Assembly (NCBI GenBank): GCA_038882955.1
Contig: JAVZNC010000008.1
Location: forward strand, 1 to 38,906
Source of the DNA: Candidatus Bathyarchaeia archaeon
Lineage (GTDB): Archaea > Thermoproteota > Bathyarchaeia > Bathyarchaeales > Bathycorpusculaceae
Length of the DNA: 38,906 nucleotides
Direction of reading: 5' to 3'
Positions 14,439 through 38,906 of the stretch are shown here, in pieces. The number at the start of each line of letters is the position of its first letter. The stretch's first letter is position 1. The position numbers and the translations under genes are program-made. The notes beneath the pieces are model-generated. The model searched no databases. It was not told the origin of the DNA and saw only the letters and a list, made by a program, of their open reading frames with translations.

Positions 14439-14957
14439 ATGGAGGTGTTGAAAATAGACAAAAGGAAAGCCCTAATTTTACTATCCATAGTGGTTGCAGT
14501 TGCAATCATAAGCGGAATTGTTTTAAATGCATATTCCACTGCTAACGCACAAGCCACTGTTAACAGCGAACAAGGCTGGAATTTCGGCGCTGGATGGTTC
14601 ATCGGAAATATGAGCATGGGAATGCGAGGCATGCCTTATGGAGGGATGCGTGGACGAGGATGCTTTGGCTATGGATCTGTCGAAGTCAGCGAAGAATTCA
14701 AACAGAACGTGATTAACATAGCCAAAAACGATACAGATGTGCAGAACCTACTAAATGAAGGATACAACATAACGGCAGTAAAGCCAATTATAAAAACCAT
14801 AGTTGAAGGAGACGGAACAGTCATCACTAAGGCAACAAGCGCTATCCTAATACTAGAGAAGGATACAACAGGCCGCGCTTTCGTATGGGTTAATTTAGAA
14901 CAAGCAAAAGTGACAAGGATAGAAATCCTAACTAGAACTGTAATCGAAAAACCCTAA
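14439..14957 (+). CDS. secreted/membrane-anchored protein with Gly/Met-rich segment
   Basis: N-terminal TM/signal, GMRGMPYGGMRGRG stretch, C-terminal alpha/beta domain; start ambiguous (ATG 14439, TTG 14448, or ATA 14454 after GGAGGTG). Confidence 0.8.
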   Translation: MEVLKIDKRKALILLSIVVAVAIISGIVLNAYSTANAQATVNSEQGWNFGAGWFIGNMSMGMRGMPYGGMRGRGCFGYGSVEVSEEFKQNVINIAKNDTDVQNLLNEGYNITAVKPIIKTIVEGDGTVITKATSAILILEKDTTGRAFVWVNLEQAKVTRIEILTRTVIEKP

Positions 14958-32998: not shown

Positions 32999-33454
32999 CT
33001 AGATAGAATGTGAAACTGCATGCATAAGCCTTTCGGCAATTTTCCGCCCAAAATCCACACACTGCACAACTCCACTTTTATCAGGAGCATACTTAACCAG
33101 AAGCGGAGGCTCAACCACAACCATGCCAAACCTATTCTTAAGTATCTCCAAAACCAACCGCGGTGCTTCACCACTCCAACCATAAGAGCCAAAGGCAGCC
33201 CCAAGCTTTCCACGCAAATCAACGTTCTTGACAGCAACATCCTCAAAGAAATTCTTAAGGCTGAGCGGCATATCATGATGATAAGTTGGGACACCGAAAA
33301 CCAGAGCATCAAATGAAGAAAGTGCTTCCGGAGGCACATAATAGTTAATTTCAACCTCAACGCCTTGAACGCTTTTAATGCCTTCAGCAACAGCCTTAGC
33401 CATAACCCCCGTATTTCCCGTTCTACTATAATACAAAACAAGTATCTTGGGCAT
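32999..33454 (-). CDS. flavodoxin-domain protein
   Basis: YYSRTGNT..MA, G.PTY, AFGSYGWSGEA; start placed at ATG 33454. Confidence 0.92.
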   Translation of the reverse strand: MPKILVLYYSRTGNTGVMAKAVAEGIKSVQGVEVEINYYVPPEALSSFDALVFGVPTYHHDMPLSLKNFFEDVAVKNVDLRGKLGAAFGSYGWSGEAPRLVLEILKNRFGMVVVEPPLLVKYAPDKSGVVQCVDFGRKIAERLMHAVSHSI

Positions 33455-33531
33455 GTGCTCCACAAGCTCTTCTATAGCCCCAAATATAAATATGAAACTT
33501 TTGCAAAAACACATTCAGGAGGTACGCCAAT

Positions 33532-33729
33532 ACGCCAATCGTTCATGTAAACGTTTGGGAAGGATTTGGCGCGGAAAAAACCAAGATCCTGATACAGAAC
33601 ATAACAAAGGTTTTTGAGGATTTAGGCATACCAAAACATGCTGTTGAAGTTGTAGTTTATGAAATACCAAAGTCGCACTGGGGAATAGGCGGAGAACCAG
33701 CATCCGCAAAGTTTCCAAATCGAAAATAA
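33532..33729 (+). CDS. 4-oxalocrotonate tautomerase family protein with ACG at the start position
   Basis: ACG-PIVHVNVWEGFGAEKTKILIQNITKVFEDLGIPKHAVEVVVYEIPKSHWGIGGEPAS..; AGGAGGT 8 nt upstream; in-frame TGA at 33493 and no upstream canonical start. Confidence 0.85.
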   Translation, partial: TPIVHVNVWEGFGAEKTKILIQNITKVFEDLGIPKHAVEVVVYEIPKSHWGIGGEPASAKFPNRK

Positions 33730-33860
33730 TCGGCTAAAATTTCCCTCCTTTTTATGCTGTTAGAGGTTTGGAACGCGGCTTATACCAGTAGAAATATGAC
33801 TTAAATCGTAATATAGGTTAAATCTTTTAAAGGGTTTAGACTATATCAGAATAGTGGAGT

Positions 33861-34208
33861 TTGGTGTTTGGTATGGTTAAGAGTGGAGAGGAGGAGAAGA
33901 TTCGGCGTATACTGACTGATCCGAAGCTTTCAGCGATTAAGGCTATGCTGGAGAAGGATCATGCGATTGATTGCATTTTCTTGCTTTACATGGAGCGGGG
34001 CAAGTGGAAGGAAGCGAAGGAATTCATGCGCGCTAATGGGTTAACGCTTAGTGACGGCACTTTTAGGGCTAGGATGATTGAGATTGAGGAGCTTGGTTTG
34101 GCTAAGGGCGAGCGTATTGACCCCTTGAAGAAGAAGTACTTGAAAACTGAACTTGGCGAGAAAGTGGCGAAGCTTCTGCTTGAGTTCTTTGACAAGCTTG
34201 AGCGCTAG
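33861..34208 (+). CDS. winged-helix DNA-binding protein
   Basis: LSDGTFRARM.EIEELGL....Y..TELGEKVA..L pattern. Confidence 0.75.
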   Translation: MVFGMVKSGEEEKIRRILTDPKLSAIKAMLEKDHAIDCIFLLYMERGKWKEAKEFMRANGLTLSDGTFRARMIEIEELGLAKGERIDPLKKKYLKTELGEKVAKLLLEFFDKLER

Positions 34209-34408
34209 CGTTCTTGTTTTAATGCTTTAAGGGTTGTGTTGTACACGTTTCGTTTTTGATGTTTTTTAGGGGTTTTTCTAGTTCCTTGTCTTTGGTTTTT
34301 TGTAGATTTGTTTTTCAAATGGTTAATATAGTGTAGTAAGTCGTAAGATTTAAATGTCCTTTCTCCCCTTACATAAACAGCAATCCAAAAAGGAGGGATA
34401 AAAAGGAA

Positions 34409-34816
34409 ATGAAGTTGCTTAGGAGTAGGAAAGCCCTTAGCCCAGTGGTTGCGTCGATTATACTTATTGCGGTGACTGTTGCTGTCAGCTTGGCGGTGGC
34501 AGCGTTCATGGGAGCGATTCCTGGACGCTACATGAATCAGCCTACATTAAGCATTACATCAATGAGTTTCACTGGTAACGGCGCCAGCATCACCATTAAT
34601 GTTACAAATACAGGAACTGCTATCGGGACTGTTTCATACGTAAAGGTGAACGGAAACTCTACGACATTTAGCCCAGCTCCAGCGAACATACAGCCAGGAA
34701 GCACTGTAACAATAACTGTGAATTTTGCATGGACATCTGGTCAAAGATACATGGTTTCACTTTATGCGCAGTCTGGTGAACTTTTAACCGCTAGAGAAGA
34801 ATACGCTCCAAGTTAA
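34409..34816 (+). CDS. archaeal type IV pilin (class III signal peptide)
   Basis: RSRKA|LSPVVASIILIAVTVAVSLAVA, followed by a beta-sandwich with N-glycosylation sequons. Confidence 0.92.
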   Translation: MKLLRSRKALSPVVASIILIAVTVAVSLAVAAFMGAIPGRYMNQPTLSITSMSFTGNGASITINVTNTGTAIGTVSYVKVNGNSTTFSPAPANIQPGSTVTITVNFAWTSGQRYMVSLYAQSGELLTAREEYAPS

Positions 34817-34897
34817 GGGCTGCTTTGAGATTGGGGGTGGGGCTGTTAGCCTTTCCATCATTTCCTCTATTATTTGTGTTTGGAGGTGTAGAACGCT

Positions 34898-35323
34898 ATG
34901 GTGGTTGAGATTAAGGAGTATGGTTCAGCTGAAGAGATAGCTGAAGCTCTTGAGAAAGAGATTTCGGAAACCAAGAGTACTTTGGGCGAGTATCTGCGTA
35001 GGCTTGATGATATTCGAGCTTTAGCCGAAAAGTCAAAGAAGATTCGCGAGGTAGTCTTGAAGTTGGCTGGTAAGAAGGCTGTCGGCGAGAGTCTTGGCGA
35101 AATCACTATTGGCAGCTTGAACATCGTTTTGGATGCTAATCCATTTCACGAGTTGACAGCAATTGAAGAGGTTGTGCGCAGTCATCAGGAGAGGCTTTTG
35201 GTTTTGCAGAAGGCTCGTGAAGCCTTAAAGTGGCTTGACCAGCTTGGCGACACTGAAGGCTTAAAGTATCTTGTTGTTGAGAATGACGGTGTTCCTGAGC
35301 GGATACTCTTTAAGATATCTTAA
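34898..35323 (+). CDS. hypothetical protein (helix-hairpin-helix, coiled coil)
   Basis: GGAGGTG RBS; two long heptad helices separated by a beta hairpin; DGVP tail. Confidence 0.85.
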   Translation: MVVEIKEYGSAEEIAEALEKEISETKSTLGEYLRRLDDIRALAEKSKKIREVVLKLAGKKAVGESLGEITIGSLNIVLDANPFHELTAIEEVVRSHQERLLVLQKAREALKWLDQLGDTEGLKYLVVENDGVPERILFKIS

Positions 35324-35351
35324 AGCGTTTGAAAGGGTTGCGTGGTAGAGC

Positions 35352-36197
35352 ATGGACAGCGATGTTTATTCGTTTGCCTTAAAGAGCGCCTTAGATGAAA
35401 TTAGGAACTTGTGTCCAGACGTGACTGGCGCCTTCGTTTTCAAAGAGGACGGCGAAATTGTTGCTTGTGACGGCGCCTTATCAGATAAGGTTATAGTGCG
35501 CGTTGTGGATGCTTTTGACGGCATTTTCGAGAAGGCAGGCGCCATAGGTGGTGTTAACGCCATAACCATTGATGGCTTGGATGGACGCGTTAGCGTTTCG
35601 CGTGTTAACGATATTTACATGGTTATTGCCACTTCAAAGAAGGCTGACGCTAATTATGTTAACACTGTGACTCGCGTTTTGATTCCGACGGTTCTAAGAT
35701 TGCTCGATAAGATCTGCCCCGCCCCCCTCAAAAGCGAAAAGCCACTAGAAGAGTTTTCGTTGAAGGCTGAGGAGTCGCCGTCAACACTATTAGAAGAGAA
35801 ATCCATAAGCGGGACAGCGGTTGAGGAAGAGGAAAACGTTGAGGCTAAAGAGGTTAAGGGTGGAGAGGTTGGAGTAGAGCTGGGGAGTAAAGCTTTTTCT
35901 GCCGAGCCTCCTGTGAATCAGCTTATTGTTGAAAATATTGGGGGTTTGCTTGTGCCTTCTGACACTGTGCGCGTTGATCCCGCGGTTCTGAAGCAGTGGG
36001 GCGAGCTCTATGAGGGCATTGAAATTAGGGAGGTTGACATTGAAACGTTTGGAGGCAAATCTGTGCGTTGCAAGGTTAAGCCTATCAAGGATTCGAAGTA
36101 TGAGGGGAAAGGCGTTATCCAAGTGCCTGAAAAAGTCCAGTCAAGCCTTGAAATTAAGAAGGGTGAGCTTGTTAGGGTTAAGCCTGTTGTTGAATAG
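35352..36197 (+). CDS. roadblock/LC7-like domain + acidic linker + Cdc48-N-like double-psi beta-barrel
   Basis: L.EIR..CPDV.GAFVF..DGEIVA roadblock start; C-terminus DTVRVD...KVKP...GKGVIQVP......IKKGELVRVKP. Confidence 0.7.
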   Translation: MDSDVYSFALKSALDEIRNLCPDVTGAFVFKEDGEIVACDGALSDKVIVRVVDAFDGIFEKAGAIGGVNAITIDGLDGRVSVSRVNDIYMVIATSKKADANYVNTVTRVLIPTVLRLLDKICPAPLKSEKPLEEFSLKAEESPSTLLEEKSISGTAVEEEENVEAKEVKGGEVGVELGSKAFSAEPPVNQLIVENIGGLLVPSDTVRVDPAVLKQWGELYEGIEIREVDIETFGGKSVRCKVKPIKDSKYEGKGVIQVPEKVQSSLEIKKGELVRVKPVVE

Positions 36198-36216
36198 GTT
36201 AGGGGGCTGATGGTTT

Positions 36217-36609
36217 ATGGTTAGGAAGAAGCGTGATGAAGGGGTTTCGGCTGTTGCTGCGCCTGTGGCTGTCGAGGAAACTGTAGGTGTTGGTGATTTG
36301 CGTTCGGTTTTGGAGGAGGTTAAAGGTTACGTCGGTGTTATTGGGTACATCTTGCGGAATTCTACGTCTGCGGCTATTGACCTTAATGACCCCTCGAAGA
36401 TTATTGATTTTGCAATTCTTTCTTCAGCTGCGCTTGAGGCTGGGGAGGACGTTGCAGAGGTTTTCGGTCTGGGTCGGATTAAGGATGTTGTTGTTGAGGG
36501 CGGCGATGTTAAGGTGCTTTCTTTGACTGTTGGCGATAATGAGATTAGTGTTTTTATGGAGAAAGGTGCCGATTCAAATCGGGTTTTGAAGAAGTTGCTT
36601 TCGGGTTAG
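36217..36609 (+). CDS. roadblock/LC7 domain protein
   Basis: L..VK...GVIGYIL; A.LS.......E.F.LG.IKDVVVEG...KVL......ISVF. Confidence 0.8.
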   Translation: MVRKKRDEGVSAVAAPVAVEETVGVGDLRSVLEEVKGYVGVIGYILRNSTSAAIDLNDPSKIIDFAILSSAALEAGEDVAEVFGLGRIKDVVVEGGDVKVLSLTVGDNEISVFMEKGADSNRVLKKLLSG

Positions 36610-36848
36610 GGGGCTATTTCCCTCTCTCTTTTTATTTTGCCCTCGTGTTTTAGAAGTTTTTGGAAGTTTTCTTCGAGTTTTATTTTTTGGGTTTTTGGGT
36701 CTGTTTTTGCGAGGTTGTATTCTTTTAGGAAGTTTATGATTTGCGCTACCTGTTCTATGGTTAGTTTTGTTTTTTGTTGCATCTCTTTTGGTGTGTGCCA
36801 TTCTCCGTCTGCGAGTATTTCCAGCACCTTTGAGAGTGGTGTTGTCGT
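36606..36848 (-). CDS. small winged-helix protein, probable ACG start
   Basis: GGAGG 8 nt before in-frame ACG (36848) giving M-TTPLSKVLEILADGEWH...IINFLKEYN; alternative GTG at 36827 has no RBS. Confidence 0.75.
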   Translation of the reverse strand, partial: TTTPLSKVLEILADGEWHTPKEMQQKTKLTIEQVAQIINFLKEYNLAKTDPKTQKIKLEENFQKLLKHEGKIKREREIAP

Positions 36849-37009
36849 TGATGTATCCTCCGTCGGTGGTATTGTTTTTGTTTTTTGCTTGCTTTTATGG
36901 TTTCTGGGGTTGTTTTTCAGAAGTTTTTTCTAGAGGATTGTTTAGGGATTAGTTTTATTAGTGGTTTTGTATTATTTTATTATTTGCAGAGTTCGTGTTC
37001 GGATTCTGA

Positions 37010-37306
37010 TTGAGTGATGTTGTTATGGTTGAGCGGGGAGGTGGAAGGCGCAGGCGGAGTCGGGTTGAGGTTATAATTGAGATTTTAAGTGAGGCTTTGG
37101 ATGGCGTTAATAAGACTCGGCTTATGTATCGTTGTAATTTGAATTTTGGGAGGTTTAACCGTTATTTGAGGGAGCTTTTAGACGCGGGTTTGCTTGAATG
37201 TGTTGTTTCTAACCCTGATGCGGGTGTTGTTTTGTATAGGACTACGGATAAGGGGCGTGAGTTGCTGAAGATTTTGCGCAGGGTCGGCGAGTTTATGTCC
37301 GTCTAG
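37010..37306 (+). CDS. archaeal winged-helix regulator (RRS..E.I..IL..KT..MY..NL family)
   Basis: RRSRVEVIIEIL...NKTRLMYRCNLNF..F.RYL..L...GLL...Y.TTDKG. Confidence 0.88.
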   Translation: MSDVVMVERGGGRRRRSRVEVIIEILSEALDGVNKTRLMYRCNLNFGRFNRYLRELLDAGLLECVVSNPDAGVVLYRTTDKGRELLKILRRVGEFMSV

Positions 37307-37386
37307 CGTCAATTTTAGGCTGTTTGGGACTGTTAAATTGGATACCCCCTCTAGGTTTTTGCTGTGTGGTTTGAGAAATAGCCTTT

Positions 37387-37812
37387 TTAGTGGATTTTGT
37401 TTATTGCTATTTCGTTTAGTTTTTTGTTTATGCGGATTTCTAGTTCTAGGCTTGTGTCTGTTAGGTTTGTTATGCGTGTGCATTGGATTATTAGCGTCTT
37501 TCGTGGTGGAATTATTATTGTGCCTACGGCTGTTGCTGTTTCTTGTGGCGTTTGTGTTTGAGCTTGCGTTTCTTGTGGGTTTTCTTTTTGGTTTATGATT
37601 AGGGTTTTCCAGTTTTGGTTTAGTTTTATTTGGTTTGTTGCTGGGTTATGTTGTATCATGTCTGCTTGGGCTAGGAATGTGACTATTTGGTTTGCTTTTT
37701 CCTGTGGGATTTCTAGGTTTTTTGCTATGTCTGTTATGTTGTGCCATACGTTGTCGCTTAGTAGGTCTAATAGCTTTTCTAGTTTTGTTGGCAAATTTTG
37801 GCCTTCTGACAT
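37387..37812 (-). CDS. winged-helix protein with C-terminal beta domain (paralog of 36606-36848)
   Basis: LLDLLSDNVWH...IVTFL resembles VLEILADGEWH...IINFL. Confidence 0.8.
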   Translation of the reverse strand: MSEGQNLPTKLEKLLDLLSDNVWHNITDIAKNLEIPQEKANQIVTFLAQADMIQHNPATNQIKLNQNWKTLIINQKENPQETQAQTQTPQETATAVGTIIIPPRKTLIIQCTRITNLTDTSLELEIRINKKLNEIAINKIH

Positions 37813-38007
37813 TTTGTTTTGGCTTTGGTGGGTAGCTTATGCTATGTTTTTGCTGTTTATAAAGGGTTAAGAACTTTTAGGCTAGACTAATGGTCTGGTT
37901 TTAGATATATGCTATTTTTGTTCGGAATTCGAATAAACTTTAAAAATGGATTAATAATGCTAGATTAATTAATGCTAAATTTAATTTGTGGAAGAAGGAG
38001 AAAACCA

Positions 38008-38391
38008 ATGAATCGCGATACACTTAGTTTACTTGAGCAGAGGCTTATCAACGCTTTCATGGATTTTGTTGTGCTTTTTGCGATGCAACGAAATGGCGGC
38101 TATATCAGTGGCTATGATGCTATTAAGTACGTGTATAGGCGGTTCAACTTTCTTCCGAGTTCTGGGACGGTCTATGCGCATTTGTATGCCATGGAGCGGG
38201 ATGGACTGTTGCGGGGTGTACAGAGGAAGCGTTGCATGGTTTATTGTTTGACGCAGAAGGGCATTGATTTTTTGAGGGACATTGAGAGGGCTAATGGAAA
38301 TATCAAGAGGCTTTTGGGCATGATTTTTCCTTTTAAGAACGGTGATGGCGAGGACGGCGAGGGCGCCGACGTTTCTGGTCAAACACTTTGA
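38008..38391 (+). CDS. PadR-family transcriptional regulator
   Basis: SGYD.I....F...SSGTVY..L..MERDGL....Y.LT.KG; AGGAG RBS before ATG 38008. Confidence 0.88.
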   Translation: MNRDTLSLLEQRLINAFMDFVVLFAMQRNGGYISGYDAIKYVYRRFNFLPSSGTVYAHLYAMERDGLLRGVQRKRCMVYCLTQKGIDFLRDIERANGNIKRLLGMIFPFKNGDGEDGEGADVSGQTL

Positions 38392-38530
38392 CTTTTTCCA
38401 CTTTTTTCATCCATGGAATTTTTGCTGGCGCTTCTGTTAATGCTTCGAGTATTTCTTCTTCTATTTCTTTGTTTGTTTTTTCTTCGCTTTCCTCTATTAG
38501 GGTTATTGTTATTGTTGCCTTTTTCTTCGT
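38333..38530 (-). CDS. small hypothetical protein, 65 aa, probable ACG start
   Basis: ACG-KKKATITITLIEESEEKTNKEIEEEILEALTEAPAKIPWMKKVEKVKVFD..; purine-rich AGGAG/GGGAG upstream; in-frame TAA at 38558-38560 and no ATG/GTG/TTG upstream of ACG. Confidence 0.6.
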   Translation of the reverse strand, partial: TKKKATITITLIEESEEKTNKEIEEEILEALTEAPAKIPWMKKVEKVKVFDQKRRRPRRPRHHRS

Positions 38531-38840
38531 TTTCTCCCTTCTCCTCTTCCCTTTAATTTAACATTAGATATTACTAATTTTGCCATAGATTTAAGTCTTG
38601 ATGAAAAATTTTTCTAGAAGACGTTTTAGATTCTTTCGCGGATATGTTCCATTTTTGTTATAGTCTTTTGGTCTAGTTCTTTGTTTCATTGGTGTTTATA
38701 TTCGCTGGAGTATATACCATTATGTGGTTAGGCAATTTAGCCGGCTAGTTGCACCTTTAGGCGGTTAGGCCGGTCTAACCCGTGCCGAGTGTGGGGCACG
38801 TTAAATGTACCCAAAAGAGGAGAAGGAGAGTGATAATGGA

Positions 38841-38906
38841 ATGGAGACCAAGAAATTAGCGGCAATATTCGCAATATTGATTATAGCGTTAGGCGCAGCA
38901 GGATTC
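38841..38906 (+). CDS. secreted protein, 5' part only (METKKLAAIFAILIIALGAAGF...)
   Basis: GAGTGA RBS; signal-peptide pattern; truncated by the window end. Confidence 0.7.
   Translation, partial: METKKLAAIFAILIIALGAAGF

Follow-up and report, generated by a model that had tools for sequence, protein, structure and literature searches.

ACG as a putative, conserved start codon in an order-level clade of Bathyarchaeia

The window analysed here, a complete contig (C8; 38,906 bases) of a Bathyarchaeia metagenome-assembled genome (MAG; 1.54 Mb, 31 contigs, 43% G+C, 95.6% complete), carries within 5 kb three small genes in which ACG stands where a start codon is expected: gene (a), which belongs to the 4-oxalocrotonate tautomerase family; gene (b), for a small winged-helix protein; and gene (c), for a 65-residue protein of an unnamed multi-copy family (Table 1). 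The original prediction, made from the sequence of the window alone, pointed to these three codons, and profiles and orthologues do place each of them where homologues have Met1, in frames that are open and intact. We label the source MAG G000, a sister species that is 92% identical G003, and another member of the same genus G002. The runs that contain the stretch (X1, X2 and X4 among them) are hot-spring metagenomes, and contigs of X1 match all three ACG sites with 0 differences (33134-33570, 36234-36930 and 37873-38680, at depths of 25.6, 38 and 42.2). This comparison is at contig level, minor variants at the ACGs are possible, and X1 is probably the assembly's own source and not independent sequencing, so an assembly slip is excluded for the three ACGs and a sequencing artefact is not; for gene (b) a sequencing artefact is ruled out as well, because its ACG is conserved across relatives. 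The 16S rRNA of G000 has the 3' end ...GGATCACCTCCT, and confident starts in this genome are preceded by a G-rich Shine-Dalgarno (SD) motif at -13 to -8, with a match of at least five bases in 54 of 172 against a background of 5.7%, and with a usual SD-to-start spacing of 7-10 nt.

Table 1. Positions in the window of the three ACG-started genes, their SD motifs and neighbouring features
Feature	Position	Strand	Remark
SD AGGAGGT of gene (a)	33518..33524	+	last G of GGAGG 8 nt before ACG
8-nt tandem copy ACGCCAAT ACGCCAAT	33525..33540	+	ACG start and Pro codon lie in second copy
Gene (a), 4-oxalocrotonate tautomerase family, 65 codons	33532..33729	+	ACG at Met1; stop 33727-33729
Gene (b), ~80-aa winged-helix protein	36606..36848	-	conserved ACG start 36848-36846
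SD GGAGG of gene (b)	36857..36861	-	8 nt before ACG
Small DNA-binding gene, contig end (HTH_45 winged helix)	37010..37306	+	
Small DNA-binding gene, contig end	37387..37812	-	
737-bp segment, PadR-like gene and gene (c)	37903..38639		missing from G003 and some metagenome contigs
Small DNA-binding gene, contig end	37972..38391	+	
Gene (c), 65-aa protein, unnamed multi-copy family	38333..38530	-	ACG 38530-38528 aligned to homologue Met1
Purine-rich SD-like run GGGAAGAGGAGAAGGGAG upstream of gene (c)	38534..38551	-	

Gene (a) opens ACG-CCA, translated as TPIVHVNVWEG..., and has no alternative start, since its 77-codon stop-to-stop frame holds no ATG, GTG or TTG anywhere, including the 12 codons between the upstream stop and the ACG. 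It matches PF01361 at 41 bits (cut-off 22), and its residue 2, a proline, falls on profile position 1 and on position 2 of those NCBIfam models that include Met1; the best of these models scores 61.4 bits, under the equivalog cut-off of 86, and thus supports family membership only. The catalytic Pro1 of tautomerases would be blocked by a Thr-Pro N-terminus. Across 15 orthologous loci the codon before this proline is ATG in 9, GTG in 3, TTG in 1, ATA in 1 and ACG in 1, the last being G000 itself; the start codon is ATG in G003 and GTG in G002. A relative, G008 (locus L004), has ATA behind GGTGA at the start column. Most positions of the spacer between SD and start differ from G003, and a small templated duplication may have produced the tandem copy found there, together with or after the change of the start codon. 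Judged from these orthologues, the putative ACG start of gene (a) is species-specific and a recent ATG-to-ACG change.

The same is true of gene (c), whose putative ACG start is likewise, by comparison with its homologues, a recent and species-specific change from ATG. An in-frame TAA lies at 38560, 10 codons before the ACG, and none of the codons between is canonical, as had been predicted; the sole canonical codon of the frame is an ATG 40 codons downstream. No Pfam or NCBIfam model matches the protein, whose family members have 55-65 residues. At 26 homologous loci, ATG, GTG or TTG stands at the ACG column or no more than two codons from it in 22, while 2 have ACG (gene (c) itself and one more), 1 has ATT and 1 is unclear. 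In a relative from G006 (locus L084), ATT follows GGAGG, with a stop 7 codons upstream. Gene (c) sits in the 737-bp segment that is missing from G003, where the blastn alignment has a gap between window positions 37922 and 38640, and from some X1 and X4 contigs, which join 37902 directly to 38640.

Gene (b) has a different history. Its ACG is common to the three species of the genus in which the gene is present, and within the genus indels are confined to the stretch upstream of the ACG, with synonymous changes directly after it. The SD is GGAGG or GGGGG in G003 and G002 and is kept in most orthologues, one of which has ACG with an in-frame TAG two codons before it. Across the order, ACG lies at the column or one codon off in 14 of 27 orthologous loci, the remainder having ATG, TTG or, once, CTG (G011); in a collection of named genomes ACG is present in 8 of 10 loci, and at least 4 of these 8 are apparently the same records as before. 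Pfam matches to the protein are weak and below threshold (TFIIE_alpha, 17.2 bits). The putative ACG start of gene (b) is thus old and common to many genera, by the evidence of these orthologues. Conservation in sister genomes, proposed as a check, therefore holds for gene (b) and fails for (a) and (c), where the changes are specific to G000. It was also suggested that the three ACGs lie on a locally A/C-rich strand and that T-to-C pressure may generate them. The skew is present for (b) and (c) and marginal for (a) (GC skew -0.03, AT skew +0.12); T-to-C pressure may have helped to produce the ACG of (c), but it cannot explain that of (b), because the latter is common to many genera. Two further non-canonical starts proposed in the window fell away, as the ATT at 2983 (apgM) has an in-frame GTG at 2992, and for the ATA at 14454 the same frame offers ATG at 14439 and TTG at 14448.

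The broader evidence for ACG starts comes from genes elsewhere in the genome. We traced four G000 genes that lack a sensibly placed canonical start through 40 relatives, and find that five gene families retain ACG in the Met1 column: the GTPase HflX, a GCS2-family (glutamate-cysteine-ligase-like) protein, the RNA polymerase subunit Rpo6, a NuoB-like subunit (PF01058), and the winged-helix protein of gene (b). A GGAGG-type SD lies 5-10 nt before the ACG in all of them. For HflX, an SD-preceded ACG fills the start column in 34 of 38 genomes of the order, and in 0 of 19 from other orders. The arrangement is GGAGG(A), then 9-10 nt, then ACG-AAA-GCN-ATH in 28 of 30 loci from the relatives, the other two having ACA and ACC, and a class-wide sample adds ACG in 6 of 8 further in-order genomes (ACT and ACA in the others). 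A TGA directly precedes the ACG in 3 genomes, and an upstream stop lies within 8 codons in 12 of 28; the Pfam domain GTP-bdg_N begins at residue 15. HflX genes from other orders have ATG or TTG at the ACG column in 5 of 19 and a canonical codon no more than 5 codons upstream in 13 more, so that 18 of 19 have ATG, GTG or TTG at one of these places (for example ATG-AGG-GCG-GTC-ATA-GTT). In the GCS2-family gene, 20 of 22 loci have ACG; an in-frame stop precedes it by no more than 8 codons in 10 of these 20, and in 1 gene the stop stands directly before it. In Rpo6, ACG is found in 28 of 30, at the column itself in 17 and one codon further along in 11, and the stop of the preceding gene lies 1-5 codons before the ACG in 22 of the 28. 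The NuoB-like gene has ACG in 15 of 30 (10 at the column, 5 lying 2-3 codons on, 3 of these 5 directly behind TAA); in G000 itself the codon overlaps the upstream stop as TAACG.

These observations go beyond conservation of a residue. The codon occupies the Met1 column, no usable canonical codon lies upstream, the SD stands at the proper distance, and selection acts on the codon beyond the amino acid, ACG making up 0.86% of G000 codons against 2.1% for ACA, also a threonine codon. From the conservation of ACG in families across the order, with 0 of 19 HflX genes outside it having ACG, we conclude that the trait is old, that it is specific to this one order-level clade, and that selection maintains the nucleotides themselves. 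One further gene may belong here: a 989-residue class I aminoacyl-tRNA synthetase (C1 minus strand, ~289049-289070; L213/L238) shows, order-wide, an in-frame TGA, then GGG, then AT[ACT] or AC[ACT], a variable codon, and TTC-TCN. At that position ATG or GTG is found in just 3 of 30 genomes and ACG in 4 of 30; as an ACG candidate it is doubtful, but it may have another non-canonical start.

An enrichment of ACG can also be seen among orthologue pairs; the original prediction had asked for a genome-wide count. Comparing G000 with one contig of G003 (C1, 391,207 bases), with a home-made gene finder and orthologue filter, we obtained 1277 best-hit pairs of open reading frames, of which 670 passed a filter for synonymous change and 313 remained after removal of overlaps. 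In these pairs we counted identical in-frame codons that have an SD in both genomes and lie upstream of the first shared canonical start. Of the 106 codons 8 are ACG, where codon usage predicts 0.9-1.3 (binomial P 4e-6 and 5e-5); in the out-of-frame control from the same pairs ACG accounts for 2 of 273 (Fisher P 8e-4). ATA (2), ATT (2), ATC (0) and CTG (2) are at or below expectation in the 313 pairs, with no enrichment. On inspection 5-6 of the 8 conserved candidates are credible. Candidates judged doubtful or false as ACG starts include a Mut7-C-like gene (C1:345579), which has GTG or TTG 5 codons on in both genomes, a MazG-like gene (C2:172057), with an ATG 5 codons on, two genes in poor context (C3:174542 and C1:165656), and C2:280164.

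Counts within the single genome are less telling. Under strict criteria (an SD and an in-frame ACG at least 5 codons before the first canonical codon), 13 of 1542 confident G000 genes qualify, of which ~8-10 are credible. Under one set of thresholds ACG is the top codon, with 11 in frame versus 5 in the two other frames (P 0.0019); 4 of those 11 ACGs lie directly before ATG, GTG or TTG, and 2 are apparently spurious. We rejected such counts as a decisive test, for they are too noisy and dominated by spurious reading frames, triplets internal to the SD and codons beside true starts. Overall, by our estimate, ACG starts make up roughly 0.5-2% of genes, a small minority, so that the claim that this lineage "routinely" initiates at near-cognate codons was overstated; 'regular and conserved' is, we think, a fair description. 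The three ACG starts within 5 kb compare with ~0.1 expected among ~11 genes, although this is a post-hoc count, and two of the three, (a) and (c), arose recently, in a part of the contig that is variable.

The ACG codons, their position in the Met1 column, the SD sites, the upstream stops and the conservation are all observed directly. We think it likely, with a probability of about 0.75, that ACG is a working and evolutionarily maintained start codon in this order-level clade of Bathyarchaeia. Initiation would take place at an ACG behind a GGAGG-type SD 5-10 nt upstream, often right behind the stop of the preceding gene, and either SD pairing or coupling to the terminating ribosome would place the ACG in the P site. 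The ordinary initiator Met-tRNA (CAU) would presumably accept ACG with a central C-A mismatch; the first residue would then be methionine, and Pro1 of the tautomerase could still be exposed. A weak codon of this kind may keep expression low. The ATG-to-ACG changes in (a) and (c) may have been tolerated because the initiation machinery of the lineage already accepted ACG.

What we find of that machinery is consistent with the use of the ordinary initiator. Inspection of the tRNA genes, which had been proposed, found in G000 one standard initiator tRNA with anticodon CAU, an A1:U72 pair and a GGG/CCC anticodon stem. A dedicated initiator-like tRNA(CGU) was looked for in G000 and rejected, the sole credible tRNA(CGU) there being without initiator marks; with the MAG 95.6% complete, a missing tRNA gene is possible. 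That tRNA-Thr(CGU) has the features of an ordinary elongator: its terminal pair is G1:C72, and its anticodon stem, GCGGU/ACCGC, lacks three G:C pairs. The extra 5' A in the ARAGORN tRNA output is a flanking base. Relaxed fidelity of aIF1/aIF2, which had been offered as the cause, was not borne out: loss of aIF1 can be set aside, with the gene found in all 19 in-order genomes searched (G000 and 18 others), and a small alignment of aIF1 (4 in-order and 9 other sequences), which does not test function, has no residue specific to the clade. Nor does simple relaxed fidelity predict the pattern, since only ACG is enriched. The idea of near-cognate initiation under SD control thus survives for ACG, in five families across the order, and not for ATA, ATT, ATC or CTG.

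Several points weigh against a working ACG start. The whole case rests on comparative sequence. That ACG alone is enriched is itself awkward, since AUA, AUC, AUU and CUG initiate better in E. coli, and the HflX exceptions within the order (ACA, ACA, ACC and ACT) would be double mismatches for a CAU anticodon. Among the 8 conserved candidates, at least one, the Mut7-C-like gene, has its shared GTG/TTG at a place that fits the N-terminus of the family better, and in three others (C6:21539, C1:293075 and the Rpo6 gene of G000) a canonical codon follows 4-8 codons after the ACG. In gene (b) of G000 there is an in-frame GTG at 36827, 7 codons after the ACG, which the original prediction did not mention when it described, correctly, the GGAGG-8 nt-ACG arrangement. 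The single-genome counts add to these doubts, with ACG at 16 versus 4 and 10 in spacing controls, at 10 in frame versus 6 out of frame (P 0.016) in a count where GCA stands out more, and, in the strict G000 count, at 13 observed versus 4.9 expected without being the top codon.

For genes (a) and (c) only, it is also possible, if doubtful, that the change from ATG to ACG is a loss of the start and that these are silent or decaying pseudogenes. Neither ACG is shared, as the ATG of G003 and the GTG of G002 in gene (a) illustrate; gene (c) lies in the 737-bp segment that G003 and some X1 and X4 contigs lack; and several frameshift-like breaks are found elsewhere in G000. But both frames are intact behind a strong SD at the proper spacing, and G000 keeps ACG starts in conserved housekeeping genes, so an ACG need not silence a gene here. 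Relatives, too, have one-off non-canonical codons in these columns, namely ATA for (a) in G008 and ATT for (c) in G006, which also speaks against decay.

We think it unlikely that C-to-U deamination of the mRNA turns the genomic ACG into AUG, in the manner of plant organelles, giving a normal AUG start, even though two features would fit such editing. ACG is a single C-to-U step from AUG and is the sole enriched codon, with ATA, ATT, ATC and CTG not enriched; and 38 of 38 HflX genes of the order have C as the middle base, so that ACA, ACC and ACT would become AUA, AUC and AUU, all starts of genetic code table 11. Both the ACG-only enrichment and the middle C kept in the four HflX exceptions misfit simple leakiness and would be expected from C-to-U editing. 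Against this, deaminases of the CDA fold (PF00383, the fold searched for) are present in 11 of 19 in-order genomes and also in many other orders, and were not found in 8 in-order genomes, among them G108, a 100% complete genome whose HflX gene has the ACG. A literature search turned up no C-to-U editing of archaeal mRNA, and we know of none in archaea.

A nearby codon could instead be the true start (ATA or ATC in HflX, GTG or TTG in gene (b) and Rpo6), leaving ACG as a conserved threonine codon or part of a leader, and public annotation of HflX might seem to point this way: of nine public relatives, 4 begin MVQRR, at an ATA 4 codons after the ACG, 1 begins MLVQRR, 2 are cut by 21-23 residues and 1 by 74, and 1 reaches too far upstream, through the SD. 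Every HflX exception is a threonine codon, and in G000 there is, beside the GTG at +7 in gene (b), a TTG at +8 in Rpo6. We nevertheless consider this improbable. The HflX SD lies 9-10 nt before the ACG, near the usual spacing, versus 18-22 nt before the ATC or ATA; HflX of G022 has no ATH codon in its first 8 codons; and the isoleucine codons are kept also in genes outside the order that have ATG at the ACG column. ACG, the rarer threonine codon, fills 34 of the 38 HflX columns. The GTG of gene (b) is GCA in G002, and most orthologues have no start codon there; in many Rpo6 genes the stretch from the ACG to the conserved GPP motif is free of canonical codons; and the tautomerase needs its Pro1 in a frame that lacks any canonical codon.

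Initiation by Thr-tRNA(CGU), or by another route independent of the initiator tRNA, with an N-terminal threonine, seems to us the most improbable of all, for although every in-order HflX variant is a threonine codon, the tRNA-Thr(CGU) of G000 is an ordinary elongator, a Thr-Pro N-terminus would block Pro1 of the tautomerase, and the clade strongly favours ACG although ACA is the commoner codon. A reporter started with ACG did give, in E. coli, some N-terminal threonine peptides beside those with methionine (10.1101/063800).

Going further, we speculate, more tentatively, that ACG may be a regular fourth start codon served by a dedicated mechanism and not by leaky near-cognate pairing. Such a mechanism could be C-to-U editing, modification of the initiator tRNA at position 35, or a change in the decoding centre or in the aIF1-aIF2 checkpoint, and ACG would act as a throttle on housekeeping genes such as those for Rpo6, HflX, the NuoB-like subunit and a small DNA-binding regulator. 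We regard this stronger proposal as rather doubtful at present.

Non-AUG initiation is known as a kind; what is new here is that it is clade-wide, specific to ACG and conserved in housekeeping genes. Our literature search found no description of ACG starts in archaea, the matches being eukaryotic, viral or from plant organelles. Bacterial infC, which encodes IF3, has a conserved AUU start codon, and the likeness is that a weak non-canonical start is fixed clade-wide in a housekeeping, translation-related gene behind a normal SD, where it presumably sets expression; here, in contrast, the codon is ACG, the organisms are archaea with aIF1, aIF1A and aIF2, several unrelated families are involved, and no autoregulatory loop is known. 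In eukaryotes and viruses, as in the VP2 capsid protein of adeno-associated virus, ACG is described as read, most likely by initiator Met-tRNA, at reduced efficiency, and as setting protein ratios, but there initiation depends on scanning and Kozak context, whereas an SD or coupling to an upstream stop would serve here. The edited starts of plant plastids and mitochondria resemble our case, in the accounts consulted, in having a genomic ACG exactly at Met1 as the sole non-canonical codon; they differ in that such editing machinery is unknown in archaea, and PF00383 deaminases do not track the clade.

Genetic code table 11 allows TTG, CTG, ATT, ATC, ATA, ATG and GTG as starts, and not ACG, and archaeal start codons are described as thought to be limited to AUG, GUG and UUG (PMC4705826). 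According to a review of archaeal recoding, aIF1 discriminates against non-canonical starts in Sulfolobus extracts (PMC8211752). Ribosome profiling of Haloferax volcanii gave ~30% near-cognate codons among putative alternative start sites, set aside as possible false positives (PMC7261190). Those data resemble ours in suggesting that archaeal ribosomes can sit on near-cognate codons, but the sites are not presented there as main or conserved starts, and ACG has 0 occurrences in the main text of that paper. When all 64 codons were compared in E. coli, AUA, AUC, AUU and CUG initiated at 1-2% of AUG and the rest at 0.1-1% (10.1101/063800). An ACG placed by an SD thus starts translation there with methionine first, at 0.1-1% of AUG, but in that account it ranks below AUA, AUC, AUU and CUG and is no annotated natural start, whereas here it is the sole enriched and conserved non-canonical start.

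Some other features of the contig and the genome deserve mention. Genes for small DNA-binding proteins are packed densely at the contig end; besides a weak PadR-like protein they encode an HTH_45 protein (72 bits) and an ATG-started paralogue of gene (b). From 36000 to 38906 the plus strand is rich in G and T regardless of gene direction (GC skew +0.38 to +0.43, AT skew -0.36 to -0.41), genes on the plus strand being G/T-rich, and those on the minus strand very A/C-rich and encoding proteins rich in K, T, Q, N and P. The pattern resembles a strand-specific mutation bias of the sort found in an asymmetrically replicated element, and the region is kept in G003 at ~89% identity. Two intervals, 33788-34378 and 36940-37727, have 5-20 times the depth of the surrounding contig in X1, X2 and X4, with many divergent contigs; the genes they hold (for an unnamed 111-residue protein and for the HTH_45 protein) seem to be common to many members of the community. 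Lastly, four G000 genes appear to have frame breaks near the 5' end or internally, C4:64793(-), C1:338926(+), C7:20236(+) and C22:4383(-), read from their translations as a topoisomerase IB N-terminus, a RelE-like protein, a dockerin-bearing protein and a LeuA-like protein. Each has an ATG-started piece or a continuing frame just upstream in another frame, and these could be assembly indels, real pseudogenes or cases of frameshifting.

If ACG does serve as a start codon in this clade, there are consequences for how its genomes are read. Gene callers had been expected to miss or truncate such genes, and the public HflX entries, which start at the downstream ATA, are truncated or are extended, agree with this. 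Taking the first canonical codon in G000 would remove 75 codons from HflX, 54 from the GCS2-family protein and 72, including the Cys motif, from the NuoB-like subunit, and metabolic reconstructions from Bathyarchaeia MAGs inherit these start errors. A simple reading rule may serve to find further cases: an SD, then 5-10 nt, then ACG, frequently just behind a stop codon. Beyond annotation, a clade with ACG fixed in Rpo6 and HflX would be a natural experiment on how codon-anticodon pairing is checked by the eukaryote-like factors aIF1, aIF1A and aIF2, and a defined natural set of mRNAs would make that question of initiation checking testable.

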